Positions 5,599 through 61,540 of a stretch of DNA of 64,000 nucleotides are shown piece after piece. Location: assembly GCA_963775725.1 (NCBI GenBank), contig CAVZKA010000002.1, forward strand, positions 1,320,242 to 1,384,241. Direction: 5' to 3'. A model generated the notes under the pieces. The model did not search any database, was not told the origin of the DNA, and saw only the letters and a list, made by a program, of their open reading frames with translations. The DNA is from an uncultured Acidobacteriota bacterium (lineage in GTDB: Bacteria > Acidobacteriota > Thermoanaerobaculia > UBA5066 > Gp7-AA6). Position 1 is the first letter of the stretch. Each line of letters begins with the position of its first letter. The translations under genes were made by a program, and so were the position numbers.

Positions 5599-6699
5599 AT
5601 GTTGACCCTCGAAGTCCGTCGGCGGCCGGGTACGGGTGCGGAGATGCATCGGATCACGGGTCCGAGCGCGACCGTCGGCGCCTCCTCGGGCAACGAAATT
5701 GTCGTGCGCGCGCGCGGCGTCTACGGGCGGCACCTGCGCCTGCTCGAGCGCGACGGCGCGTATCACCTCGACCTCTTCCGCGGCATCGGCGCCGTGCAGT
5801 TGAACGGCCGCGAGTTCTCCGGCGGCGCGATTGCGCCGGGCGACCGCATCACGATCGGCGAAGCGACGATCACGGTCGTGGACGCGGCCCCCGCGATGCG
5901 GCCCACGCCCGTCGGCGAGATGCCCGAGGGCGACCTCGCCGCGCCGCCCCCGGCGTCGGCCTCGCCCGCGCCGCAGCTGCCGGCGACGGAGGTGGAGTAC
6001 CGGGGCCTGCGCAGCAGCGCCTACCGGATCTGTCGCCAGGCCCGCTCGGCCGAGGATCTCGCGACGGAGCTGACGGATTTTCTGGACCGCGAGCTGCCGC
6101 CGTCGGAGTGGGCGGTCGGCGAATTCTCCGCGATCGCCGGATTCCGGCCCCTCGCCTCGACCTTCCGGGAGAACCCCGCCCTGCCGCCGCGGATGGTGCA
6201 GGACATTCGCTCCGGTGAGCGCCTCGCGCGCTCCGAGAGCGTCACCGGCGTGTTGACGCTCGTCGTCGAGCCTCCCGCCGAGGGCGGCGGTTGCGCCGGC
6301 ATCCTCGTCCGCGAGACCCCGCGACTTGCGGCGCGCGCGGTGCTCTTCCTCGAGGAGCTCGTCCAGGTCGCCGGCGTGGCGTTCGCGAGCGCGGTGGCGG
6401 TTGCCGAAGAGGGCGCGCCCCCGGTCCGGCAGACCCAGGAAGTGCCGGTCAGTCCGCCCCTCTCGCCGGTCGAGGCGAGCCCCGCCGAAATCGTCCTGCG
6501 GTCGACCGACGACCTGAAGAAGATCGTCGAGACGGTCGAGCGCGAGGTCATCGACCGCGCCATGCGCCGGGTCGAGGGCAATCAGAGCCGCGGCGCGCAG
6601 ATCCTGAACATCTCGCGCGGCTCGCTGATCGCCAAGCTGAAGGAGTTCGGCGTGCCGGACTACCGCTACATGCGCCGCGAGCGGGGACGCCGGGGCTAG
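5599..6699 (+). CDS. FHA-like domain + Fis-type HTH (HTH_8) protein without an AAA+ domain
   Basis: N-terminal FHA-like segment (TVGASSGNEIVV...GRH...NG...GDRITIG); C-terminal EREVIDRAMRRVEGNQSRGAQILNISRGSL; no Walker A or GAFTGA; GGAG RBS upstream. Confidence 0.7.
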   Translation: MLTLEVRRRPGTGAEMHRITGPSATVGASSGNEIVVRARGVYGRHLRLLERDGAYHLDLFRGIGAVQLNGREFSGGAIAPGDRITIGEATITVVDAAPAMRPTPVGEMPEGDLAAPPPASASPAPQLPATEVEYRGLRSSAYRICRQARSAEDLATELTDFLDRELPPSEWAVGEFSAIAGFRPLASTFRENPALPPRMVQDIRSGERLARSESVTGVLTLVVEPPAEGGGCAGILVRETPRLAARAVLFLEELVQVAGVAFASAVAVAEEGAPPVRQTQEVPVSPPLSPVEASPAEIVLRSTDDLKKIVETVEREVIDRAMRRVEGNQSRGAQILNISRGSLIAKLKEFGVPDYRYMRRERGRRG

Positions 6700-7302
6700 C
6701 TAGTCGCTCCGCGTCCGCCGCCGGGAGTCGATCTCCGGCCGGACCAGCATCCACCACAGCACGAACGGCGCGGCGAAGCGGCCGGCGATCTGGTAGAAGT
6801 GGAATCCTGCCGCCCAGAAGTTGCTCGCGTAGGTCCCGTAGTGCGCCTCGCTCCAGGGCCCCAGGCGCGTGGCGTAGACCGACTCGACCTGGAAGACCAG
6901 CGCGAGCACGTGGATCCCCCAGAGAGCGGCGGCCGCCAGCCAGAAGCGCAGAAAGCGCCGGGGCTCGAGGGGACGCGGGACGAAGGCGAAGAGCGCGGCG
7001 AGCAGGACGAAGTTGAAGTGGATGTCCGCGGCCGGCAGCCCCGGCCGGGGCGAGGCGGGCGGAAAGTCGGACCGGTCGACGCGGATCTCGCCGCCGACGG
7101 CCGAGAGCGACGTGACGGCAGGGCTCTCGAAGGATCGGATCAGGAAGCCCGCGGCCGCCGCGAGCGTCTTCTCGTAGGGCCCGGCGAAGGCGAACCAGAA
7201 CGCGAGTCCGGCCGCAAACCCCGCGGCCATGCGCGCCGCCGCGCGCCCGTCGAGCCGGAGCCGTGTGCCGGCCGGCGGCTCAGCGGCGTTCGGACGGACC
7301 AT
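6700..7302 (-). CDS. Exosortase-associated multi-pass membrane protein
   Basis: MVRPNAAEPP... with several hydrophobic helices (AGLAFWFAFAG, DIHFNFVLLAALFAF, FAAPFVLWWMLV); start overlaps the exosortase 3' end by 23 nt. Confidence 0.6.
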   Translation of the reverse strand: MVRPNAAEPPAGTRLRLDGRAAARMAAGFAAGLAFWFAFAGPYEKTLAAAAGFLIRSFESPAVTSLSAVGGEIRVDRSDFPPASPRPGLPAADIHFNFVLLAALFAFVPRPLEPRRFLRFWLAAAALWGIHVLALVFQVESVYATRLGPWSEAHYGTYASNFWAAGFHFYQIAGRFAAPFVLWWMLVRPEIDSRRRTRSD

Positions 7303-7838
7303 GCGCTCCGACCGCCGCGGCGGCCCGCGTCCGCTGCTCGCGCGACGCCCAGAAAAGGAAGAGGAGCACGCTGAAGAGCACGACCACCGACTGCCAGATG
7401 ACCGTGTGCGAAGAGGAGAAGAGCGCCGGCCGGTGCGCGCCGATCCAGAAGAGCGAGACGACGCGCACGAGGTTGCAGCAGCTGGATCGCGGCGAACCCG
7501 GCGGCCAGACCGAGGATCCGCCGCCGCCACGGGCGCGGGGAAGGCGAGGACGGCGGCCCGAAGAGCAGCGCGGCCTCGACCCCGTTGCAGCCGTTCTCGA
7601 TGTTGACAGAGAAGGCCCCGGAGCGGATCTCGGTGCCCGCGACCGAGACCTTCTCGCCGATCACCGACAGGAGCGCCGCCGAGACGCGCGCCACGCCGGC
7701 CGTGAACGGCACGATCACCGCGTCGTTGACGGGCCGCGAGGCGACGACCACGTAGAAGACGACGAGCAGCGCCACGAAGCGCAGGAGGAAGAAGGCGGAA
7801 CGGCGGTTGGACGAGGCCCGGGTCACGTTTTCGCTCAT
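7280..7838 (-). CDS. xrtH: Exosortase H-like (XrtH) membrane cysteine transpeptidase (two apparent indels near 7475 and 7555)
   Basis: Reconstructed FLLRFVALL...FSVNIENGCNGVEAALLF...AVLAFPAPW...NLVRVVSLFWIG...SHTVIWQ contains the Cys, Arg and His of exosortase/archaeosortase; about 185 aa. Confidence 0.8.
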
Positions 7839-8302
7839 CGCGGCGCATTATCCAGCGATTCCTGGTGCGCGAGGATTGCGCCGCACAGGTCGCGCAGGCC
7901 GGAGGGCAGCGTCAGCAGCAGCTCGCCCTGCGCGTTCAGGACCACCTGCTCCGTGACGGCGGAGGCGAGGAGGTTGCCGGCTTCGCTGCGGATCTCGTAG
8001 TCCATGACGAAGCGCGCGACATCCGGCGGGCGCAGCCGCGCGGTGACGCGCAGCGTCTGGCCCGGCGTCGCCGGCGCCCGGTACCTGAGCTCCATGCGCG
8101 TGATCGGCACCTTGTAGCCCATGGCCAGGGCGCGCGCCGCCGTGAAGCCGAAGCGCGCGGTCAGGGCCTCGCGGGCCTGCTCGAGGTAGAGCGCGTAGTG
8201 GCCGTGCCACACGACGCCGTAGGGGTCGCACTCCGCGAAGCGGACCGGGATCTCGAGGGTGGAGCCGCGCAGCGGGTCGGCCCGGCGCACCGACGCGGTC
8301 AC
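7835..8302 (-). CDS. Hot-dog fold acyl-CoA/ACP thioesterase (YbgC/4HBT-like)
   Basis: VRFAECDPYGVVWHGHYALYLEQARE motif, RYRAPA; GTG start overlaps upstream stop (GTGA). Confidence 0.85.
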   Translation of the reverse strand: MTASVRRADPLRGSTLEIPVRFAECDPYGVVWHGHYALYLEQAREALTARFGFTAARALAMGYKVPITRMELRYRAPATPGQTLRVTARLRPPDVARFVMDYEIRSEAGNLLASAVTEQVVLNAQGELLLTLPSGLRDLCGAILAHQESLDNAPR

Positions 8303-9418
8303 GCCGCCGCCTCGAGGACCGCGGCGAGGAAGTTGCCGCCGGCGCCGAAGGAGTTGACGAGGGCGCGCCGGGGAGCGCCGTTGCCCGCCGCGAGGGCGCG
8401 CCCGGCGGCGGCGACGATCTGCGCACCGCCGGCGGCGGCCATTTCGCCGATCGCGTCCTTGACCGCGAGCTCGGCGCGCGGAGCGACTCGCCGAAGATCG
8501 ACCGCATGACGTCCGCCTCCGCGCGGTCCATCTCCTCGACGCCGTCGCGCGAGGAAAGCCAGAGACCGATGTCTTCGGGCTTGACGCCCGCGTCGTCGAG
8601 GGCGCCGCGGATGGCCCGTCCGATGGCGGCCGAGTCCGGGGCGAAGCGGTACGGCTCGGACGCGACGCCGGCCATCGCGATCCCGGACGAGGCGCGCGAG
8701 CGCCTTCGCGCCCCGGTCCCGCGCGCACTCCTCCTGCTCGAGCAGGACGACGAACGCGCCCTCTCCCTGCACGATCCCGGAGGCGCTCTTTTCGCCGCGC
8801 AACGCCCCGACCCGGTCGAAGCCCATCGCGTAGAAGAAATTCCACTCGTCCACGGCTCCCGCGAGCATCGCCTTCGCGCGGCCCGAGCGAGAGGGCGAGC
8901 GCGGAGTAGAGCAGGGCATTCAGGGCGGAGGGGTCCTTCTGCGTGATGGTCACATTGGGCCCGAAGATCTTGAGCTCGATCGAGATCTGCGAGGCGGGCG
9001 CGTTGGCGACGGTGTTCGGGAAGTGAAACGGGGGCGCGGCTTCCGGCGACTCGAGGAAGAGCACGCGCAGGAACTCGGTGAGCGCGCCCGCGCCGGCGGA
9101 GCCCGTGCCCATCGCGATGCCGATCGCCTCGGGCGCCTCGGCGATCCGGTACCCTGCCTCCGCAACGGCCTGCATGCACGCGATGAGGGCGAACTGGCTG
9201 CCGCGGTCGAGGCGGCGCGCCTTCATCGCCGGGATCTCGGGCTGCGGCGTGAAGCCCTCGTAGCGCGCGGCGTGCGTGGCCTGCAGGTCCTTGCGCTCCT
9301 CGGGCGGGAGCGGCCGGACGGCGCAGTCGCCCGCCGTCAGGCGCGCGAAGAACTCGGGCGCGCTGCGGCCGAGGGGAGAGACCGCGCCGGTTCCGGTGAC
9401 GAGCCCGCGTGAGGCCAC
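8299..9418 (-). CDS. Beta-ketoacyl synthase chain-length-factor-like subunit (several apparent indels)
   Basis: Thiolase-fold KS pieces: GLVTGTGAVSPLG, FPNTVANAPASQISI, GEGAFVVLLE, LVNSFGAGGN. The active-site Cys region reads ITQKDPS and the His-His dyad is absent. Confidence 0.75.
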
Positions 9419-9422
9419 CGGC

Positions 9423-10659
9423 TCACGCCCCTTCGTAGCGCGCGAGGACGACGACCGAGCTGTTGCCGCCGAAGGCGAACGAGTTCGAGAGGGCGACGCG
9501 GACGTCGTGATCCCGCGCGGCGTTGGGGACGTAGTCGAGGTCGCACGCGGGGTCCGGGTTCTCGTAGTGGATCGTCGGCGGCACCTTGCCGTCGCGCACG
9601 TCAGGGCCGTCGCCACCGCTTCGATCGCCCCGGAGGCGCAGAGGCAGTGTCCGATCATGGACTTGATGGAGGAGATCGGGATCCGCCGCGCGCGCTCTCC
9701 GAGGGCCGCCTTGAGCGCCGCGGTTTCCGCCGAGTCGTTCTGCGGCGTGGCCGTGCCGTGTGCGTTGACGTAGTCCACTTCGCCCGGGTTCAAGCCCGCG
9801 TTGTCGAGCGCGGCCGCGATCGTGCGTCCGCCGGCCGTGCCCGAGGGATCGGGCGCGGTCATGTGGTACGCGTCGGACGTGACGCCGTAGCCGCAGGAAC
9901 TCCGCGAGGACCGGGGCGCCGCGGCGGCGCGCGTGCCCGGCCTCCTCGAAGACGATGATGCCGGCGGCTTCGCCGATCGAGAGGCCCTTGCGCTCGCGGT
10001 CGAAGGGGCGGCAGGGGTCGGGGTCCACCGAGCGCAGCGAGTTGAACCCGCCGTAGGTCAGCCGGGCGAGCACGTCCGATCCACCCGTCAGGACGACGTC
10101 CGCCAGGCCCGCGGCGATCGCGTCGAAGCGCGTATCCCATCGCGTTGGCCGAGGAGGAGCAGGCCGTCGTGATCGTGGACTTGATGCCTTCCAGGCCGAA
10201 GCGCTGCGCGACGCGATCGGTGATCGAGTCGGGCAGGTGGTTCAGGACCTTCGAGGGGCGCGCCTTCTTGCCGCGCAGGTAGAGCTCGAAGAAGGCCTCC
10301 GAATCGATGAGGCCCGAGGTGCCGCCGCCGAGGATCACGCCCATGCGCGTCGGATCCTCGCGCGCGAAGTCGAGGCCGGCGTTGGCGATGGCCTCGCGCG
10401 CCGCGGCGACGCCCATCCGGTCGGCGCGGGACATGCGGCGCCGTTCGAAGGCCGTCAGGAAGCCGTCCGGGATCTCCGGAACCTCGGCCGCGGTCTGCGT
10501 GCGGTAGGCCGAGGGGTCGAAGAGCGAGAGCGGCCGGATGCCGCAGGCGCCCGCGAGCAGGCCCTCCCACGACGCCTCGAGCGTCGAGCCGACGGCCGTG
10601 ACGGCTCCCATGCCGGTGACGACGACGCGTCGTTGTCGGGCCACGCGCGATTTTGACAT
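9423..10659 (-). CDS. Beta-ketoacyl-ACP synthase, FabF/KS-alpha type (about three apparent indels)
   Basis: RVVVTGMGAV, TACSSSANA (catalytic Cys), VNAHGTATPQND, KSMIGH, SNSFAFGGN across three frames. Confidence 0.88.
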
Positions 10660-19890: not shown

Positions 19891-20571
19891 CTATGCGAAG
19901 CCGGGGAAGAGGGCGTCGAGCGCGCGGAGATTGGGCACCCGGAGGACCCCCTCGGGGGCCGGGCCTGCTCCGATGAGGACGGGAAGCAGGCCCGCGCCCG
20001 CGGCGCCCACGACGTCGATCTCGTAGATGTCGCCCACGTACGCGCAGGCGGAGGGCGGAAGCTCCAGGCGAGTGGTCGCGGCGTGAAAGATCCGGGGGTC
20101 CGGCTTCTCGAGGCCGATCTCGGCGGAATCCAGGACGAACTCGAGCAGGTGGCCGAGGCCCGCGTTCTCGAGGAGGCCGCGGACCCGGCCGTCCGCGTTC
20201 GAGATGACCGCCACGCGGTAGCCGCGTGTCCGCAGCGAGGCGAGAGTTTCGGCGGCGCCGTCCGCCCCGCGCGACCAGAGGTTCGCCCGCGCGTGCTCGG
20301 CGGCGAGGCGTCCGACCGCGGCCCGGCGATCCCCCGGCGCCTCGAAGCCCAGCCCCGCGAGCAGCGTGTCGAAGTACAGGGGGACCCGCTCCGAGTCGGC
20401 CGATTTCGGGTTGGCGAGGACGAAGCGGCGCACGGCCGAGACGGCGTCCGACTCGGCACGGCGAAAGAGCGCGGCGTCGTGGTCCCGTCCGACGGCCCGC
20501 GAGACCCGTTCTCCGTCCATGTGGATGAGCGTGCCCCCCGCATCGAAGAGGACCGCGCGGATTCCCTTCAA
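19891..20571 (-). CDS. HAD-superfamily hydrolase
   Basis: VLFDAGGTL motif I, VISN, KPDPRIF, YVGDIYEIDVVGA; TTG start overlaps the glmM stop. Confidence 0.88.
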   Translation of the reverse strand: MKGIRAVLFDAGGTLIHMDGERVSRAVGRDHDAALFRRAESDAVSAVRRFVLANPKSADSERVPLYFDTLLAGLGFEAPGDRRAAVGRLAAEHARANLWSRGADGAAETLASLRTRGYRVAVISNADGRVRGLLENAGLGHLLEFVLDSAEIGLEKPDPRIFHAATTRLELPPSACAYVGDIYEIDVVGAAGAGLLPVLIGAGPAPEGVLRVPNLRALDALFPGFA

Positions 20572-21905
20572 GAGCGGACCGCCAGCGCCTCCCGCACGGT
20601 CGCCTCGAGCTCGTCGGCGATGGCCTTGACCTCGGCGGCCTCCGGACCCTCGACGAGGATGCGCAGGAGCGGCTCGGTCCCCGAGTACCGCAGGAAGACG
20701 CGGCCGCGCGCGCGCAGCGTCTGCTCGGCGCGGCCGATCGCCAGCACGATGACCTCGGTGTCCTCGATGGGCGCCCGGCGCCCGACGCGGACGTTGCGCA
20801 GCGTCTGCGGCATCTTCTGGAGCGTGGCGAGCTCCGAGAGCCTGCGCCCGCTCGCCCGGACGATCGTCGAGAGGATCAGCGCCGTCAGGATCCCGTCGCC
20901 GGCCGGCGAGAGGGGAGCCAGCAGCACGTGGCCGGACGCCTCGCCCCCGAGCGCCGCCCCGGCCTCGTCCATCATGCGGGCCACGTTGCGGTCGCCGACC
21001 GCGGACCGGCGGAACGGGATGCCCTCCTGCGCGAGCGCCGCCTCGAGCCCGAAGTTGGACATGACCGTCCCGACGACGCCGCCCGGCGTCAGCAGCCCGC
21101 GCGCCTTCCAGTCGCGGGCGATGATCCAGAGCACGTCGTCGCCGTCGAGGATGCGCCCCGTCTCGTCGGCGAAGATCGACCGGTCGGCGTCGCCGTCGAA
21201 CGCCACGCCGAGCGCGACGCCCAACTCGCGGGTCGCCCGCGCCATCCCCTCGGGATGGAGCGCGCCGCACGCGAGGTTGATGTTGCGGCCGTCGGGCGCG
21301 TCGTGGATCGTCGTCACGCGCGCACCCGCGCGGTGGAAGGCGCGCGGGCCGATCTGGAACGCGGCCCCGTTGCCGAGGTCGAGCAGCACCGGGAAGCCGT
21401 CGAGGCTCTCCGGCAGGCTCGCCTTCAGGCGCGAGACGTAGGTCGCGACGAGGCCCGGGTCCGGATCGGGAGGCGCCGGCGTCGGCGGCGCGGCCGCCTG
21501 CGGGCCCGCCGCGAGGAGCCTGCCCTCGAGGAACTCCTCCTCCTCGTCCGGCCACTTGCGTCCGTCGGGGCCGAAGATCTTGATGCCGTTGTCCTCGTAG
21601 GGGTTGTGCGAGGCGGAGACGGCGATCCCCGCCGCAGCGCCGAGCTCGAGGACGAGCTCCGCGACCCCGGGCGTCGTGATGATGCCGGCGGGAGCGACGT
21701 TGCAGCCCCCCTCCACGAGGCCCGCCGCCAGGTCCGCCACGATGCGCGGCGTGGACTCGCGCGTGTCGCCGCCGACGACGACGCGCACCGGCCGGCCGCC
21801 GGAGAGGCGATTGCCGAACTCGCGGCCGAGCAGCCGCACCGAAGCGGGGTCGAGCGGGAACTCGCCCGCCTTGCCCCGCAGCCCGTCGGTCCCGAAGAGC
21901 TTCAC
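20568..21905 (-). CDS. glmM: Phosphoglucosamine mutase
   Basis: KLFGTDGLRG, SASHNP, FDGDADR, GGEASGH, RYSGTEPLLR. Confidence 0.95.
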   Translation of the reverse strand: MKLFGTDGLRGKAGEFPLDPASVRLLGREFGNRLSGGRPVRVVVGGDTRESTPRIVADLAAGLVEGGCNVAPAGIITTPGVAELVLELGAAAGIAVSASHNPYEDNGIKIFGPDGRKWPDEEEEFLEGRLLAAGPQAAAPPTPAPPDPDPGLVATYVSRLKASLPESLDGFPVLLDLGNGAAFQIGPRAFHRAGARVTTIHDAPDGRNINLACGALHPEGMARATRELGVALGVAFDGDADRSIFADETGRILDGDDVLWIIARDWKARGLLTPGGVVGTVMSNFGLEAALAQEGIPFRRSAVGDRNVARMMDEAGAALGGEASGHVLLAPLSPAGDGILTALILSTIVRASGRRLSELATLQKMPQTLRNVRVGRRAPIEDTEVIVLAIGRAEQTLRARGRVFLRYSGTEPLLRILVEGPEAAEVKAIADELEATVREALAVRS

Positions 21906-22618
21906 GTCTTTGCCTTCCTGCCGCGCCCGGGCGTGGGCCGGGGCGTCGGCTCGGGTGGGGGCGCCGGACGGATCCGGACCCTCACGGTGACCGCCTGTCC
22001 CTCGCGCACCCGCACCCCGGGCGCCTGGAGCGCGAGCGTCGTCGTCTCGGAAAATCCCGCGTCGCGCCCTTCGACCGAGACCGGGTCGGTCGGAAGGGTG
22101 AAGATGCGGGCCAATGTCTTGGCGGGTCCGATGATACGCGCGCTCTTCGGTTCGGTGGTGACTTCGTCGAGGTGCGCCCCGGGCGCGGGCTCCCCGGTGA
22201 TCTCGGCGACGATGGGGACCGTCTTGTCGGCGATCGCGTCGAGGACGATGGGGATCTCGGCAGGCGCGATGGCGATGACCTCGACCTCCTGCGGCACGTT
22301 GATGTCGCCGGGAGAGAGCGCATAGCGTTTCTCCCCGGGGACCGCGTCGGCGAGGTCGACCACGGCCTCGAGCTTCCCGGGCTCGAGGCTCCGCAGCGGC
22401 GTGAACGCGCCCCGGATGCGCACGGCGATCGCATCGGGAAGGGGCGAGACGATCACCGTCCCGGGGGGCACGTTCACGACCGAGAGCGGGATGCGGTAGC
22501 TGCGCTCCGAGATACGCTCGCGCCGCTGGCCCGAGAGCACGAACCAGGTCGCGCACGCGATCGCGAGGGCCAGCAGCTTGGTGCCGGGGTTGCGGAAGAA
22601 GATGCGCGACAGCTGCAT
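21902..22618 (-). CDS. cdaR: CdaR/YbbR-like diadenylate cyclase regulator
   Basis: N-terminal TM (KLLALAIACATWF), YbbR-like repeats, located between cdaA and glmM. Confidence 0.8.
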   Translation of the reverse strand: MQLSRIFFRNPGTKLLALAIACATWFVLSGQRRERISERSYRIPLSVVNVPPGTVIVSPLPDAIAVRIRGAFTPLRSLEPGKLEAVVDLADAVPGEKRYALSPGDINVPQEVEVIAIAPAEIPIVLDAIADKTVPIVAEITGEPAPGAHLDEVTTEPKSARIIGPAKTLARIFTLPTDPVSVEGRDAGFSETTTLALQAPGVRVREGQAVTVRVRIRPAPPPEPTPRPTPGRGRKAKT

Positions 22619-22627
22619 GGTCTCTCT

Positions 22628-23413
22628 CTACCTGTACGCCGCGAACTCGCGGAAGAGCAGGTCGCGCAGGGATTTCGCGTCCAGGTCCTCCTCGATCTCG
22701 CCGCCGCGGGCGAGCGAGATCGTCCCACGTTCCTCGGAGACGAGGATCGCGATCGCGTCGGTTTCCTCGGTGATGCCGATGGCCGCGCGGTGGCGCGTGC
22801 CGAACCGCTTGGGCAGGCCTTCCTTGAGCGAGAGGGGCAGGAAGCTCGCCGCGGCCGCCACCCGGTCGCCCGAGATGATCACGGCGCCGTCATGCATCGG
22901 GGTGCCCGGCGCGAAGAGGGTCACGAGCAGCTCGTAGGACACGACCGAGTCGATCCGCGAACCGTTCTCGATGTAGTTCTTCAGACCCTCGCGGCGCTCG
23001 AGCACGATGAGCGCGCCCACCCGGCGGGCCGAGAGGGATGTCACGGCCAGGACGATCTCGGAGACGGTTTCCTCGGCGTGGTACCCGGAGAAGAGGGCGA
23101 AGAAGGGCGTGCGCCCGAAAGCGGCGAGCGCCCGGCGCAGGTCGTGCGAGAAGAGCACGATGATGGCGAAGGGCACGTAGAAGATGAGCGCCTTCAACAC
23201 CGTCGTCAGGGCCACGAGCTTCAACAGGCTCGCCAGGACGTAGACGAAGAAAATCGCGAAGAGCCCGAGGACCATCTGCACGGCGCGCGTGCCGCGGATC
23301 AGGCGCAGCAGCGCGTACGTGATGATCGCGACGATCAGGATGTCGAGGGCGTCGCGCCACCCGAAGTTCAGGTGCGCGAGGGCGCCGAAGCGCGAGGCGA
23401 GCGACGGGATCAC
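22628..23413 (-). CDS. cdaA: Diadenylate cyclase CdaA (DacA)
   Basis: Three N-terminal TMs; HDGAVII and GTRHRAAIGITE catalytic motifs. Confidence 0.95.
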   Translation of the reverse strand: MIPSLASRFGALAHLNFGWRDALDILIVAIITYALLRLIRGTRAVQMVLGLFAIFFVYVLASLLKLVALTTVLKALIFYVPFAIIVLFSHDLRRALAAFGRTPFFALFSGYHAEETVSEIVLAVTSLSARRVGALIVLERREGLKNYIENGSRIDSVVSYELLVTLFAPGTPMHDGAVIISGDRVAAAASFLPLSLKEGLPKRFGTRHRAAIGITEETDAIAILVSEERGTISLARGGEIEEDLDAKSLRDLLFREFAAYR

Positions 23414-24564
23414 CGGACGGCGGCTCCGGCGGCCGCCGGCTGGGCCGCGCCGGCGATGGCCCGGGAGAGCCGCAGGAAACGAACGGATTCGGCAACGTCG
23501 TGCACGCGCAGGATCGCGGCCCCCGCGCTCGATGCGGCGGCGAGCGCTGCGAGCGAGCCGGGCAGACGGTCGGCCGGGCCGGAGTCGTCCGCGACGCCGG
23601 AAAACCGCCGGACGAACGCCTTGCGCGAGGCGCCGATCACGACGGGCAGGCCCATCGTGCGCAGAGCGGCCAGATGGCGCAGCAGCAGCAGGTTCTGCTC
23701 GGGACTCTTGCCGAAGCCGAGGCCCGGATCGATCGCGATGGCGTCGGACCCGATGCCGGCCGCGGAGGCGCGGTCGGCCGCATCGGCGAGGAACGCGGCG
23801 ATGTCGCCGAGTGGGTGGGCGTACTCGAGGTCGGCCTGCATCGTGCGCGGGTCCGTCCCCTTCATGTGCATGAGGACCACGCCGGCCCCCATCGCGGCGA
23901 CAGCCGGAAGCATCGCGGGATCGAAGCGACCGGCCGTGACGTCGTTGACGAGGTCCGCCCCGGCCTCGACGGCCGCCCGCGCGACAGCCGCCTTGCGCGT
24001 GTCGATCGAGAGGGGCTCGGCCGAACGCTCCCGGATGCCGGCGATCACGGGAACGACGCGGGCGATCTCTTCGTCCGCGGAGAGCTCGCGCGCCGCGCCG
24101 TAGGTGGAGGGGCGCGTGGATTCTCCGCCGACGTCCACGATCGCCGCGCCCTCTGCGAACATCCGGAGCGCGGCCCCGACGGCGCGGTCGCGATCGAAGT
24201 GGACGCCCCCGTCCGAGAAGGAGTCCGGCGTGACGTTGAGAACGCCCATGACGGCCGGCCCCGGGCCGAGGTCGAGGCGACGCCCGTGGGCCAGCTTGAG
24301 CGCGCCGGGCTTGCGGGCGGCCCGCTCGAAGGCCGCCTCCGCGCGCGATCGGAGGCTCGCGGGGAGGGCCTTCAGGCTCTCCGCGCGCCGGGCGCGGGAA
24401 AGGACGACCGGCCGCGAGCTCGAGCCCGCGAACCGCACGAGGTCCACCGGGAAGTCCGAGGCGGCGAAGCTCGCCGGCCGGAACCCGTCCCAGGACGCGA
24501 CGTCGCGCAGGGTGTCGGCGTCGGGAGCGGGGATGATGAGATCGGAGTCGGCGTCGGCGTCCAC
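23410..24564 (-). CDS. folP: Dihydropteroate synthase with about 100-aa N-terminal extension
   Basis: MGVLNVTPDSFSDGG, DVGGESTRP, SIDT, DPGLGFGK, GASRK, RVHDV; start position less certain. Confidence 0.92.
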   Translation of the reverse strand: MDADADSDLIIPAPDADTLRDVASWDGFRPASFAASDFPVDLVRFAGSSSRPVVLSRARRAESLKALPASLRSRAEAAFERAARKPGALKLAHGRRLDLGPGPAVMGVLNVTPDSFSDGGVHFDRDRAVGAALRMFAEGAAIVDVGGESTRPSTYGAARELSADEEIARVVPVIAGIRERSAEPLSIDTRKAAVARAAVEAGADLVNDVTAGRFDPAMLPAVAAMGAGVVLMHMKGTDPRTMQADLEYAHPLGDIAAFLADAADRASAAGIGSDAIAIDPGLGFGKSPEQNLLLLRHLAALRTMGLPVVIGASRKAFVRRFSGVADDSGPADRLPGSLAALAAASSAGAAILRVHDVAESVRFLRLSRAIAGAAQPAAAGAAVR

Positions 24565-25376: not shown

Positions 25377-25868
25377 CTACACCCCTTCGTCCGCCGTGGG
25401 CCCGTAGATCGACGGCAGCGGCACGTCGTTCAACCGCAGGTACACGGAGAGCTGCCCGCGGTGGTGGATCAGGTGATTCAGCAGGATCCGCCGCAGGACG
25501 GACCGGCGCTTACGCTTGAAGAAGACCTCGCCGTTCGGCTTCAGGACGGTGAACTCTTCCTGCATCTCGGCGTCCGTCTTGCGGGCGATGGCGGAGCGGG
25601 CAGACGCGACGTTCTCGTCGAACCGCTCCAGGTACTCGGCGGCGGACCTCATGGGGGGCGCCTTCTCGCTGCCGACCTGCCACTCCAGCGCTTCGAGGCG
25701 CAGGCCCCAGCGGGGCAGTTCCGTCACGTGCGTCGCGATCTCGCCGAGGGTGCGCGACTTCGGGTGCGGCTTCCAGTCCAGCCTGTCGGCCGGGACGCGC
25801 TCGAGCAGCCGTCGGGTCGTCGCCATCTCCGCGTCGAACTCGGGCAAAAAGGCTTCACCGCTCTTCAT
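25377..25868 (-). CDS. DinB family protein
   Basis: WKPHPKSRTLGEIATH and NHLIHHRGQLSVYLR motifs. Confidence 0.9.
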   Translation of the reverse strand: MKSGEAFLPEFDAEMATTRRLLERVPADRLDWKPHPKSRTLGEIATHVTELPRWGLRLEALEWQVGSEKAPPMRSAAEYLERFDENVASARSAIARKTDAEMQEEFTVLKPNGEVFFKRKRRSVLRRILLNHLIHHRGQLSVYLRLNDVPLPSIYGPTADEGV

Positions 25869-25914
25869 GCCGGGTACTACGCGGCAGGACGCGCCGGGGG
25901 TTCCGCCTTTTTTC

Positions 25915-27828
<1,914 letters not shown>

Positions 27829-27888
27829 AGGGGTACTCCTTCCGCGGGCCGAACCCGGTCTCTCAGTCTAACGGACTCCGGCCGGGAA

Positions 27889-28404
27889 TTATTGCTCGGA
27901 CACGACCTCATAGATGTCCGGCAGGTGGGCGTGAAGGCCTTCGTGCTCCATGCCATAACCGGCGAAGAGGCCCGCATCCTCGGCGGAAAAGAGGGAAAAA
28001 TCGACCGTGACGCTGGTGGTCCGGTCGATCGGCTTGTCCACGATGGCCCCCAGGTGCAGGGAGGCGGCGCCGTCGCCCCGCAGGTGGTCCATGAGGTAGG
28101 TCTCGATGATGCCGGTGTGGACGACGTCCTTGAGCAGCAGGACATGCTTGTCCCGGACGGTGAAGCCGCTGGCAAAGTCGATCTGGAGGACCTCGCGGGC
28201 GCCCTCGGCCCGCCGCACGTGCATGAATTCGCAGGAAAACGGGCCGCGGAGCTTGCGGGTGAGGTCCGCCATGAAGAAGGCCGAGCCCTTGAGCAGCGAC
28301 ACGACGATGAGGGGCCGCTCCCGCAGGTCCCGGTCGATGGCGCCGGCGACGGCTTCGACGCGCTCGGCGATCTGTCGCGATTCGTAGCGCCGCACCAGTT
28401 TCAC
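27889..28404 (-). CDS. hpt: Hypoxanthine phosphoribosyltransferase homolog with degenerate PRPP motif
   Basis: PRTase fold and position between tilS and ftsH; LLKG and GYG..LP.IY retained; LLLKDVVHTG replaces the usual VEDIIDSG. Confidence 0.8.
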   Translation of the reverse strand: MKLVRRYESRQIAERVEAVAGAIDRDLRERPLIVVSLLKGSAFFMADLTRKLRGPFSCEFMHVRRAEGAREVLQIDFASGFTVRDKHVLLLKDVVHTGIIETYLMDHLRGDGAASLHLGAIVDKPIDRTTSVTVDFSLFSAEDAGLFAGYGMEHEGLHAHLPDIYEVVSEQ

Positions 28405-29447
28405 GGACCGACCTCCCGGTTCTTCTTCCTCGTCGAGATCCGACCCGGCGAATCGTACACCGCCCGCGCCCCGACCGAGAATTGCGCCCCGCGCCGCTCG
28501 AAGCGGATCCGCCGGCCAGCCTCGAAGCGGAAGTCGGCGCCGCCGGCGAGCAGGGCAAGCAGCTGTTCGCGCTCGCGCCCGGTCATCGGCGGCTTACCGG
28601 GGCGGGCAAAGGGGGCGGCCAGGCGCGAGAGAGCGAGGCGCTGGAGCTCCTCGGAGGAGCCCGCGAGCAGCGCCGCGTCGATCACGACGCCGTCGGCGCC
28701 AATCCTCGCCGCGGGCAGGATGCGCGTTTCGTACTCCGACTCGAGCAGGCGCCGCTCGACGCCGAGCCGCGCGATCTCGAGGGCCATCGCCCGCAGCGAG
28801 TCCTCGCCGCCGGGTGACTCCTTGAGGCGCGCGAGCGTGCGCCGCACGCGGTTGCGCGCCAGGCGCAGGTCGCCGTTGGTGGCGTCGCGGCGAAAGGCGA
28901 TGCCGCGCTCGGAGAGGAACGCCAGGATCTCCCGACGCGAGACCGAGAGAAGCGGCCGGACGACGCCGTCCGAACGGCTCTCCTGCGGCCCCGCAAGCGC
29001 GGCGATCCCGCCCTGCCGCTCGCGGGCGAGCACGTGCGATTCCACGGCATCCTCATGCTGGTGCGCCGTGGCCACGAGCGCGGCCCCGGCCTCGACCGCC
29101 ATCTCGGCGAGCGCCCGGTAGCGGACGTGTCGCGCACCGGCCTCCGGAGAGAGCCCGAGCTCCTTGGCCGCGCGGCGGGCGTCCGCTCGCCGGGAAAAGA
29201 AGGGCAGCCCGAGCCGCTTCGCGTGCTCGGCCACGAACGCGAGATCCCGGTCGCCCTCCTTCGGCCGCCACCCGTGGTGCACGTGGCCGACCGAGATCCG
29301 CCAGCCCGTCTCCTTCGCCGCCTCGGCCGCTCCGTAAAGCAGCGCCATGGAGTCCGCCCCGCCGGAGACGGCGAGCAGCACGGCGCTTCCGGGAGGGATG
29401 AGACCCGTCTCGGCAGCCCCGACGAGCGCGACGCGGACGGGGTCCAC
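28401..29447 (-). CDS. tilS: tRNA(Ile)-lysidine synthase
   Basis: LAVSGGADSMAL, HVHHGWR, GARHVRY, TAHQHED, VRPLL, RNRVR. Confidence 0.93.
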   Translation of the reverse strand: MDPVRVALVGAAETGLIPPGSAVLLAVSGGADSMALLYGAAEAAKETGWRISVGHVHHGWRPKEGDRDLAFVAEHAKRLGLPFFSRRADARRAAKELGLSPEAGARHVRYRALAEMAVEAGAALVATAHQHEDAVESHVLARERQGGIAALAGPQESRSDGVVRPLLSVSRREILAFLSERGIAFRRDATNGDLRLARNRVRRTLARLKESPGGEDSLRAMALEIARLGVERRLLESEYETRILPAARIGADGVVIDAALLAGSSEELQRLALSRLAAPFARPGKPPMTGREREQLLALLAGGADFRFEAGRRIRFERRGAQFSVGARAVYDSPGRISTRKKNREVGP

Positions 29448-29554: not shown

Positions 29555-30265
29555 CTACGGGCAGGAGTTCGGGAACGCGTTCGTGCCCTGGACCGGCGCG
29601 AAGGCGACGCCCTGCGGGTTCGTGTTCGCGAAGATCTCGCCGGTCTTCTCGTCCCTGACGTTCAGGACCACCTGCACGTTCGTCAGGCCGGAGGCGAAGA
29701 CCCAGTAGGCGTTGTTGATCTCGCAGCCGTTGAGGACCTTGACGACGAGCTCGATGTTGGACGGCTCGAAGAACCAGAAGTAGCCCCCGTTGTCGGTCAG
29801 CTTCGTGGCGTTTCCGTGGCCCGACAAGCCGTCCGGCGTGGTCCAGTCGGCCGAGACGCTGAAACGCCCGTTTCCCACGCACAGCGTGGTCGCCGTCGGG
29901 GTACACGGGACGAAGCTCGTGCCGCCGACGATCACGGTGTGCGAGGTGCTCGAAAGCCCGTCTCCGTTGGAGACCGTGAGCGTGACCGTGTAGGTGCCCG
30001 CGAAGTTGTAGCTGAAGAACGGGTTCTGCTGGTCGGACGTATTCAGCAATCCGGCCGTGGAATCACCGAAGTTCCAGAGCCACGATGTCGGGCCCTCCGT
30101 GGAGGTATCGGTGAACATCACGGTGGCCCCCGCGTTGGGCGCCGTGGGATCGAAGGTGAAGCTCGCGATCGGCTGTCCCGCGTGAGCGGCACTCGCAAAC
30201 GCGAAAACGGCAAGGATCGCCGTCCAGAGGACTCTGCGGATCGAGTGCGGCCCGGAGAAACTCAT
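29555..30265 (-). CDS. Secreted PKD-domain protein with conserved C-terminal domain
   Basis: Signal peptide; PKD (FTDTS...SWLWNFGD...GTYTVTLTVSN); C-terminal GRF.V...W...GYFWFF..SNIELVVKVLNGC..N..YWVFASGLTNV. Confidence 0.85.
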   Translation of the reverse strand: MSFSGPHSIRRVLWTAILAVFAFASAAHAGQPIASFTFDPTAPNAGATVMFTDTSTEGPTSWLWNFGDSTAGLLNTSDQQNPFFSYNFAGTYTVTLTVSNGDGLSSTSHTVIVGGTSFVPCTPTATTLCVGNGRFSVSADWTTPDGLSGHGNATKLTDNGGYFWFFEPSNIELVVKVLNGCEINNAYWVFASGLTNVQVVLNVRDEKTGEIFANTNPQGVAFAPVQGTNAFPNSCP

Positions 30266-30334
30266 GAGCGCTCTCCTTCCTCGTTCTTTTTCGACCCCGC
30301 GCGAACGGACTGCTGTCACGGTCGGTTGGAGTAA

Positions 30335-30351
30335 TTGCAAGCCGCGTGCCG
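30335..30351 (-). promoter_or_regulatory. Sigma-54 -24/-12 promoter upstream of the PKD gene
   Basis: Minus strand CGGCACGCGGCTTGCAA matches TGGCACG-N4-TTGCW with GG-N10-GC spacing. Confidence 0.6.
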
Positions 30352-30492
30352 GGCGAGTCGAGGCTTGCACCGAGAAGCGTACCCCCTGCGCTCGTGCATG
30401 TCCGATCGTTTGATTCGATCGATTTCGAGCGAATGAAAGATGGTTCGACGGGCTGCGGTATCGTGGCTCTGCGCGGGAGCGCAGGAGGTTCC

Positions 30493-30690
30493 ATGAGCGA
30501 TCCGTCAAAGACTCGAGACACGACTGCCGAGGAGGAAGCGCCGGAGGAAAAAAACCCGCGCGACGCGCAGGGATTCAAGGAGACGCCGGCACCTCAAGGA
30601 CTGAAGACGCCTCCGCCAATCGAAGTCGGCGAGGACTCGGGCGAGTGGACGAGGGGTGGAGGTTCGGACCCCAACGAGGCCAAACACTAG
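30493..30690 (+). CDS. Small acidic, likely disordered hypothetical protein (65 aa)
   Basis: GGAGG RBS before ATG; low-complexity E/P/T composition. Confidence 0.5.
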   Translation: MSDPSKTRDTTAEEEAPEEKNPRDAQGFKETPAPQGLKTPPPIEVGEDSGEWTRGGGSDPNEAKH

Positions 30691-61231: not shown

Positions 61232-61540
61232 TTAGACTGCCTTTGCCAGCGCGTCCGCCAGGCCCGCGATCGCGGCCTCGTTGCGCGCGTAAAACATCCA
61301 GCGCCCGCGTTTCTCCGCCGTGACCAGGCCGGCCCGCCGGAGCAGGCTCATGTGGTGCGAGGTCGCCGCCTGCGAGAGGCCGATTGCCTGCTCGATGTCG
61401 CAGGCGCAGAGGCCCCGCTCGCTCCGGGCGATCAGCTCGCAGCAGGACTGGCCCTTCGCCCTGAGCAGCTCGAGGATGCGCAGGCGCGTGGGATCGCCGA
61501 GGGCCTTGAAGCCGAGCACGAAGTCCGCTCGTTCCGACAT
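61232..61540 (-). CDS. arsR: ArsR/SmtB transcriptional repressor
   Basis: FKALGDPTRLRIL, SCC, LCACD, SQAATSHH...L. Confidence 0.92.
   Translation of the reverse strand: MSERADFVLGFKALGDPTRLRILELLRAKGQSCCELIARSERGLCACDIEQAIGLSQAATSHHMSLLRRAGLVTAEKRGRWMFYARNEAAIAGLADALAKAV

Follow-up and report, generated by a model that had tools for sequence, protein, structure and literature searches.

The window analysed here, a stretch of 64,000 nucleotides from an uncultured Acidobacteriota bacterium (Thermoanaerobaculia; GenBank assembly GCA_963775725.1, contig CAVZKA010000002.1, positions 1,320,242 to 1,384,241 of the forward strand), carries between tilS and ftsH an open reading frame (ORF) that starts with GTG and encodes a protein of 171 residues (27889..28404, minus strand). 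This protein has the fold of a hypoxanthine phosphoribosyltransferase (HPRT; Hpt or HprT in bacteria) and appears catalytically degenerate; we call the gene hpt-like and the type of protein the K-D variant. Upstream lies tilS for tRNA-Ile2 lysidine synthetase (28401..29447, minus strand; PF01171, TIGR02432, PP-loop SGGADS), probably 348 residues long from GTG 29447, a start set by comparison with a 349-residue relative. The TilS_C domain was not detected in this TilS by a scan with Pfam and NCBIfam profiles, and the protein is type II-like. Its stop and the hpt-like start overlap by four nucleotides, GTGA (28401..28404, minus strand), an arrangement also seen in related loci and suggestive of translational coupling. 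Downstream, 60 nucleotides past the hpt-like stop, starts ftsH, which encodes an AAA+ zinc metalloprotease of 637 residues (25915..27828, minus strand; 881 bits against TIGR01241).

Profile matches, structure prediction and structure comparison agree on a type I phosphoribosyltransferase (PRT) fold with an HPRT-type hood. The hpt-like protein matches Pfam PF00156 with 43.6 bits, its AlphaFold2 (AF2) model has a pLDDT of 88.9 and a pTM of 0.86, and all 50 listed Foldseek matches are hypoxanthine-guanine phosphoribosyltransferases (HGPRTs), with TM-scores of 0.82-0.91 (0.85-0.91 to the bacterial ones). In HMMER searches, the closest solved relatives are again bacterial HGPRTs, 3acb, 4qri, 2geb and 1r3u among them (E-values of 1e-17 to 1e-12), the weakest sequence match listed from the Protein Data Bank (PDB) being PRTFDC1 (2jbh, E 8e-4). 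The family scores fall well short: 97.7 bits against TIGR01203, the NCBIfam HGPRTase equivalog model with a cutoff of 150 bits, and 72.3 bits against PRK09162, with a cutoff of 181. Homologues are named hypoxanthine phosphoribosyltransferase by JGI and only 'phosphoribosyltransferase family protein' by PGAP.

Alignment with the solved HGPRTs (3acb, 4qri, 2geb, 1r3u) places 'vlllKDVVHTGiietyl' of the hpt-like protein opposite 'VIVVEDIVDTGLTLSYL', 'hvrraeg' opposite the 'SSYG' of the flexible loop, and 'gygMEHeglhAHLP' opposite 'GYGLDY..yRNLP'. Each of the replacements named in a preliminary description of this gene (Glu to Lys and Asp to His in the phosphoribosyl pyrophosphate (PRPP) loop, the loss of Ser-Tyr, and GYGMEH...AHLP) is borne out by these alignments, although its list left out T141I, M142E and F186L. 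Residue numbers follow human HGPRT; the E. coli, B. subtilis and human Hpt sequences served for numbering only. In the PRPP loop LLLKDVVHTG (residues 89-98; 28111..28140, minus strand), the acidic pair Glu133-Asp134, which contacts the ribose hydroxyls and Mg, has become Lys92-Asp93, with only the aspartate kept. Asp137, the acid/base for N7 and the 'invariant aspartic acid in HPRTs' in the titles of PDB entries 1i0i, 1i0l, 1i13 and 1i14, is His96, and the canonical Thr141 and Met/Leu142 are Ile100 and Glu101. At the start of flexible loop II, HVRRAEG (residues 62-68; 28201..28221, minus strand), Arg-Arg-Ala takes the place of Ser-Tyr, with Arg65-Ala66 at human 103-104; this segment has a low pLDDT in the AF2 model, as expected for a mobile loop. 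In the loop IV and C-terminal motif GYGMEHEGLHAHLP (residues 149-162; 27919..27960, minus strand), Asp193 (Mg) is Glu153 and Arg199 (pyrophosphate contact) is Ala159. The stacking aromatic Phe186 is Leu146, a one-residue insertion placing a Phe one residue later. Retained are Lys68 of loop I (K39), Thr138, Gly139, Lys165, which contacts purine O6 (K124), and Arg169.

The hpt-like protein thus resembles canonical Hpt/HprT (EC 2.4.2.8; PDB 3acb, 1r3u, 6d9r) in fold, in length, in about 25-28% of its residues, in its tilS-ftsH position and in K68, D134, T138-G139, K165, R169 and the GYG loop. It differs in E133K, D137H, the lost Ser-Tyr loop, T141I, M142E, F186L, D193E and R199A, and in its equivalog score. 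Because the fold alone of the defining features examined is present in full, with Lys68, Lys165 and the stacking residue in part, the protein should not be filed as Hpt. With at least five contacts to substrate, Mg or pyrophosphate replaced and the equivalog cutoff missed, its residues make an ordinary HGPRT very unlikely, in agreement with the preliminary description.

Among 5.8 billion proteins searched, there were 144 homologues with identities of 48-97%, many of them from metagenome-assembled genomes (MAGs) of Thermoanaerobaculia. The nearest relatives are soil MAGs labelled Acidobacteriota/Thermoanaerobaculia; in one of their loci (L005) the Hpt-like protein is 97% and FtsH 99% identical. 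In the 115 full-length sequences used for residue counts, K92 occurs 114 times, D93 every time, R64 in 110 and R65 in 113; position 96 is His (79), Asn (28) or Ser (7), never Asp, and position 159 is Ala (87) or Gly (28), never Arg. A set of distant homologues was drawn from 1.84 billion cluster representatives by exhaustive HMMER searching, followed by motif extraction. At 27-45% identity, wider relatives carry the motifs K-D-V-V-x-[TS]-G-[VI]-[IT]-E-x-Y and G-Y-G-[LM]...G...[AG]-N-L-P, and beyond about E 1e-22 the sequences are mostly canonical, with (V/I)-E-D-I-(V/I)-D-(T/S)-G, S-S-Y-G and Y-R-N-L-P. When distant members were used for a profile search, 2002 proteins at E <= 1e-10 came up among 8000 candidates scored. 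For the nearest canonical HPRTs, the names of their clusters carried no usable taxonomic labels.

Residues were tabulated for three subsets of the clade (118, 117 and 24 sequences) and for 112 canonical HPRT representatives. Position 133 is Lys or Arg in 116/118, 117/117 and 24/24 of the clade sequences, the exceptions being one or two aberrant sequences, and position 142 is Glu and position 199 Ala or Gly save for one to three aberrant sequences. Across the clade D137 is replaced by His, Asn, Ser, Thr or Ala, with the canonical Asp only as a rare exception, Y104 is found in almost no member, and position 186 is aliphatic. The canonical representatives, by comparison, keep D137 in 106 cases, Y104 in 100, T141 in 102, F186 in 98 (with Tyr in 10 more), D193 in 110 and R199 in 111. 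Lys68 and Lys165, kept in the window and its subclade, are lost in deeper branches, the former to Gly (101/117) and the latter to Ile, Leu, Met or Val; the D193 position, Glu in the close subclade, is Lys in the distant members, and the loop arginines are gone in many.

In a neighbour-joining tree (50 bootstraps) of 50 K/R133 sequences with canonical sequences, all 50 fall in one clade free of canonical members, which is recovered in 48/50 bootstraps when one exception is allowed. As the K/R133 sequences are monophyletic in this tree, the E133K-type change arose once and has been kept since. Scanning GTDB, with one genome per species, for the pattern KDV[VI]x[TS]G[VI][IT]E matched 285 genomes; the best 80, whose loci were retrieved, are all Acidobacteriota (Thermoanaerobaculia, Holophagales, Holophagae). 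One deep clade member is labelled 'Deltaproteobacteria bacterium', a MAG label that we treat with caution. Rather than a single oddity, the gene is thus part of a large, old clade, a point absent from the preliminary description; the clade spans 30-97% identity with unchanged synteny. Other degenerate HPRT-like lineages, unrelated-looking, were also seen (P0146, P0147, P0187, P0201, P0221, P0222, P0230), in which Asp134 is replaced by Gly (EG, DG, YG or SG for ED); the PRPP acidic pair may have been lost more than once.

The hpt-like gene is under strong purifying selection. Pairwise NG86 estimates of relatives against the window gene (dS 0.4-1.0) give a ratio of nonsynonymous to synonymous substitution rates (dN/dS) of 0.04-0.23, near that of ftsH (0.05-0.11) and below that of the essential gene tilS (0.18-0.48) in the same genomes. 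An intact ORF is present in each of 77 species-level loci, whose codon alignments vary synonymously at every signature residue (K92 is AAG in 64 and AAA in 13, E101 GAG in 69 and GAA in 8, and R65 uses five codons), supporting the earlier statement that the substitutions are no indel artefact. The preliminary description had asked whether KDVVHTG is conserved; the signature is kept in relatives, with neither relaxed selection nor restriction to a single assembly. Across 23 diverse members, the invariant or nearly invariant columns are D47, R50, D93, V94, E101, Y103, L104, R128, G149-Y150-G151, P162, L38, G40, L48, K92, G98 and D123. These 18 columns cluster in loops I, III and IV of the former active site, which hold 11 of them in 50 of the 171 positions (P=0.003), and conservation is strongest in the old ribose-5-phosphate loop (K-D-V-V-x-T/S-G-x-x-E). 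Since this loop and loops I and IV are the best-conserved part of the clade, the pocket is probably still in use. The Glu to Lys replacement and the two loop arginines of the window subclade fit an Mg-independent recognition of anions.

Gene order ties the K-D variant to tilS. Among L004-L083, tilS is directly upstream and ftsH directly downstream in every locus with enough flanking sequence, and the same order, with an hpt-like gene in the middle, is found in the metagenome loci L001-L003 and L084-L088, reaching about 38% identity. The tilS and hpt-like frames overlap by four nucleotides in 50 of 82 loci and lie within 45 nucleotides of each other in most of the rest, the outliers resembling frameshifted long-read assemblies; the hpt-like stop and the ftsH start are separated by a median of 60 nucleotides. 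Moreover, in three proteins (P0158, P0402, P0403) a complete type I TilS, with PP-loop and TilS_C, is fused at its C-terminus to an HPRT-like domain of the K-D type, which in the window is encoded by a separate gene. P0158 (696 residues) and P0402 (698 residues) are 79% identical and come from one source each (lgn); P0403 (667 residues) is 46% identical to P0158 and present independently in both a JGI and an ENA assembly. A single such fusion could result from a one-nucleotide error at the overlap, but three fusions in two divergent lineages do not. Gene fusion is classic evidence of joint function, and by this token TilS and the K-D HPRT-like protein would work together. Together with the synteny and the four-nucleotide overlap, the fusions of the same degenerate type make the link to TilS, already drawn in the preliminary description, appear strong.

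Databases hold entries named 'bifunctional TilS/HprT'. Judged by its residues, the degenerate domain means that the K-D fusions cannot be enzymatically 'bifunctional'. TilS fusion proteins of more than 600 residues are mentioned in PMC11947777. Two further joined products were noted. P0159 (522 residues) fuses an FdhD/NarQ domain to a canonical (EDIVDTG) HPRT domain. In L084, a 2.0-Mb long-read contig, ftsH, folP and cdaA are called as one product of 1271 residues (6643-10458), more likely through indel errors joining adjacent frames than as a real multi-gene fusion.

The TilS proteins of the window and its subclade are short (about 325-355 residues), type II-like and without TilS_C; in deeper branches TilS has 430-486 residues, in some cases with a TilS_C match (L084, L086). 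Short TilS tends to accompany K68, K165 or Arg at that position, and the loop Arg in the partner, a pattern that is phylogenetically confounded. The idea that basic residues of the partner compensate for the loss of TilS CTD2 was rejected, since K68 is also retained in several lineages with a long TilS and the same phylogenetic confounding applies.

A precedent for a joint role of the two proteins exists. In Bacillus subtilis, ftsH is activated by a TilS-HprT complex that attaches to two inverted repeats at the promoter of the gene (Lin, Hu and Shaw 2014, J Biochem 155:5, as cited in PMC8152036), and the preliminary description was right on this point; according to the same citing article, tilS and hprT overlap there by one nucleotide. 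The loci described here share the tilS-hprT-ftsH order, the overlapping tilS/hprT frames and an element upstream of ftsH directly past the hprT-like gene. In contrast, B. subtilis HprT is a fully active moonlighting enzyme, whereas the enzyme residues are gone here, and no counterparts of its repeats IR-I and IR-II were found near the ftsH start.

The element in question is a conserved block of 14 nucleotides, GAGTCCGTTAGACT (27865..27878, minus strand), with a -10-like TAnnnT, recognised in an alignment of 31 spacers and a candidate ftsH promoter or operator. The block reads GAGTCCGTTA(GA/TG/AA)CT and occupies the same place in L001-L066, 20-25 nucleotides past the hpt-like stop; a CCGT(T)A..T element is present in 62/72 loci at a median of 36 nucleotides ahead of the ftsH start. 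It is followed by the ftsH Shine-Dalgarno sequence AAGGAG (27836..27841, minus strand), nearly invariant in the aligned spacers, with one base different in a few. Further upstream, 'GCAATAAA' (GCAAT(A)AA) is kept in L050, L054, L058 and L063, where the hpt-like gene ends earlier, and it is therefore not conserved merely as the region of the stop codon. The spacing GCAAT-N18-GTT loosely resembles extracytoplasmic function (ECF)-type promoters. Overall, ftsH very probably has a promoter of its own where the hpt-like gene ends, like its B. subtilis counterpart. A sigma-70 scan detected nothing resembling a promoter, and sites resembling terminators were no more frequent than expected by chance. 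Inverted repeats were sought near the 3' end of the hpt-like gene and near the start of ftsH; only weak palindromes within coding sequence came up, none like IR-I/IR-II. Comparison with Rfam returned only sub-threshold miRNA noise, and an apparent hairpin in the ftsH leader was discarded after RNAalifold gave three pairs and no covariation. No RNA runs with related sequence were found, the matching runs being DNA metagenomes of soil, sediment and rhizosphere. Control of ftsH by the hpt-like protein would be plausible by analogy with B. subtilis.

The wider gene order is tilS, hpt-like, ftsH, DinB, NAD-binding protein, folP, cdaA, ybbR, glmM. The folP-cdaA-ybbR-glmM block (20568-24564, minus strand) lies past ftsH, DinB and the NAD-binding gene and is kept in relatives; cdaA-cdaR-glmM are also clustered in Firmicutes. 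In many relatives an ArsR/HTH_5-family regulator gene is directly upstream of tilS (L001 8514-8924; L084, L086, L089). The window has at that position a gene for a PKD-domain protein (29555-30508) instead, its sole and weak ArsR/HTH_5 match being at 61235-61501. Long antisense frames opposite ftsH, hpt-like and tilS (for example 25516-29121, plus strand; up to 1201 residues) are usual at the G+C content of the window, 69%, and are not genes. A search limited to the 64-kb window found no second Hpt-like match or other PRT motif.

We favour, with moderate confidence, the reading that the K-D variant has the HPRT fold and a conserved pocket of the ribose-phosphate type but no catalytic function, and acts as a partner of TilS. 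The protein has the 6-oxopurine PRT fold in a catalytically degenerate form and belongs to a single-origin Acidobacteriota clade (Thermoanaerobaculia, Holophagae), in which most residues for binding of Mg-PRPP and pyrophosphate, N7 protonation, purine stacking and site closure have been replaced (E133, R199, D193, D137 and the Ser-Tyr loop, and in deeper branches also K68 and K165). Purine salvage would thereby have been lost, and the protein kept for the other role known for HprT from B. subtilis, its association with TilS, as a presumed non-catalytic TilS subunit. The former active site probably still binds a phosphate-bearing ligand, such as a nucleotide, a PRPP-like compound or an RNA backbone, or forms a contact surface. 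The effect further downstream could, speculatively, lie in lysidine formation, in ftsH transcription from the element past the hpt-like stop, or in both.

Several points weigh against this reading. The loss of activity is deduced from residues, and the physical association with TilS from gene order and fusions. In the AF2 model of the natural fusion P0403, both parts fold confidently, but the pTM is 0.62 and the linker of 17 residues (471-487) is disordered, so that the model defines no interface. The window subclade is also the least degenerate, with K68, D134, T138, G139, K165 or Arg, and Glu at the D193 position, and its two gained loop arginines could in principle stand in for R199. Finally, the D137N variant of human HGPRT reportedly has an only moderately lowered kcat, so that no single change is decisive.

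Some of the same observations would suit a working phosphoribosyltransferase, either an HGPRT that binds PRPP without the usual Mg and Arg199, with K92 and R64/R65 standing in, or a PRTase with a new base. In its favour, the window subclade keeps R169 besides the residues just listed, its newly gained basic residues (R64, R65 and K92) hardly vary, conservation within the protein is highest in the active-site loops, as in an enzyme, and JGI names the homologues accordingly. However, many members of the same monophyletic clade do without K68, K165, the loop arginines and D193 while keeping the operon position, and the shared function can therefore not depend on these residues. The acidic pair, Arg199 (111/112) and the purine-stacking aromatic (98+10/112) are moreover near-universal in active HPRTs, and the score below the equivalog cutoff and the reserved PGAP name point the same way. 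We consider an active enzyme doubtful.

The preliminary description had proposed a pseudoenzyme that senses (p)ppGpp or a nucleotide and, together with TilS, binds upstream of ftsH and activates its transcription. The B. subtilis activator, the shared gene order with overlapping tilS and hprT, and the -10-like block past the hpt-like stop (62/72 loci), probably an ftsH promoter placed where such a complex would act, are all compatible with it. Less so are the ligand contacts. In Bacillus anthracis Hpt-1, ppGpp is held by the side chains of Glu99, Asp100, Arg165, Lys131 and Phe152, by loop backbone amides and by Mg, and binding was much weaker once these side-chain contacts had been changed (Anderson et al. 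2019, PMC6783271). The equivalents in the hpt-like protein are Lys92, Asp93, Ala159, Lys124 and Leu146; two of the five are kept, the counterparts of Glu99, Arg165 and Phe152 are replaced, and the Mg ligands are altered. Binding of (p)ppGpp in the known HPRT mode is thus unlikely on the strength of the residues, and this part of the proposal found no support, though the ligand might conceivably be bound in another mode. There are also no inverted repeats comparable to IR-I/IR-II near the ftsH start, neither protein has a DNA-binding motif, and the DNA-binding data are confined to B. subtilis. As an analogy with that system, the proposal as a whole appears improbable.

An accessory structural role for FtsH, or for the folP-cdaA-ybbR-glmM envelope cluster, rather than for TilS would agree with the constant presence of ftsH within about 60 nucleotides and with the conservation of the cluster. 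Yet the coupling signals, overlap and fusions, point to tilS, and ftsH is set apart by a spacer with a promoter-like block and a Shine-Dalgarno sequence, making such a role very unlikely. A decaying hpt, an artefact of assembly or frameshift, or relaxed selection can be dismissed as extremely improbable, since only the unusual residues and a few frameshifted homologues in long-read MAGs (P0116, P0002) speak for it and it is refuted by the dN/dS values and synonymous codon variation over 77 intact loci, with synteny held over 30-97% identity.

The favoured non-catalytic partner of TilS has parallels among PRT-fold proteins. Like PRTFDC1 (PDB 2jbh), T. brucei APRT2, yeast Apt2 (PMC8836349) and the PRPS-associated pseudoenzymes (PMC13252144), the hpt-like protein keeps the type I PRT fold and has lost key catalytic residues. 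Unlike these, which are eukaryotic duplicates beside an active paralogue, it occupies the ancestral hpt locus, has another and larger set of substitutions, and is tied to TilS. PyrR and PurR are precedents for PRT folds as ligand-sensing regulators, but the hpt-like protein matches neither family in Pfam or NCBIfam, and PyrR keeps both the acidic PRPP motif and uracil phosphoribosyltransferase activity. By analogy, then, the hpt-like protein would work like a PRT-fold pseudoenzyme seated where a documented moonlighting enzyme sits. In the literature searched, with most subscription journals outside its coverage, we found no earlier account that links a degenerate bacterial HPRT to TilS.

A broader and more tentative possibility concerns the ancient, widespread tilS-hpt linkage itself. 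HprT might be part of a TilS holoenzyme, as a structural or regulatory subunit, and the K-D clade a natural separation-of-function allele that has discarded salvage and kept the essential TilS role through a remodelled phosphate pocket. Under such a separation of functions, the role could be recognition of tRNA-Ile2, or it could make lysidine synthesis and ftsH expression responsive to nucleotide status.

In many bacteria hprT is located between tilS and ftsH, and to date this has been explained only by the single B. subtilis study of TilS-HprT moonlighting. A clade that has apparently lost HPRT chemistry and has kept the gene, its coupling to tilS and the fusions under strong selection would constitute independent evolutionary evidence for a non-enzymatic function, and would offer a clean system in which to study that function free of salvage activity. 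The motif is present in at least 285 GTDB species genomes, and the label 'hypoxanthine phosphoribosyltransferase', which some pipelines give to homologues, would wrongly credit these genomes with purine salvage in metabolic reconstructions.

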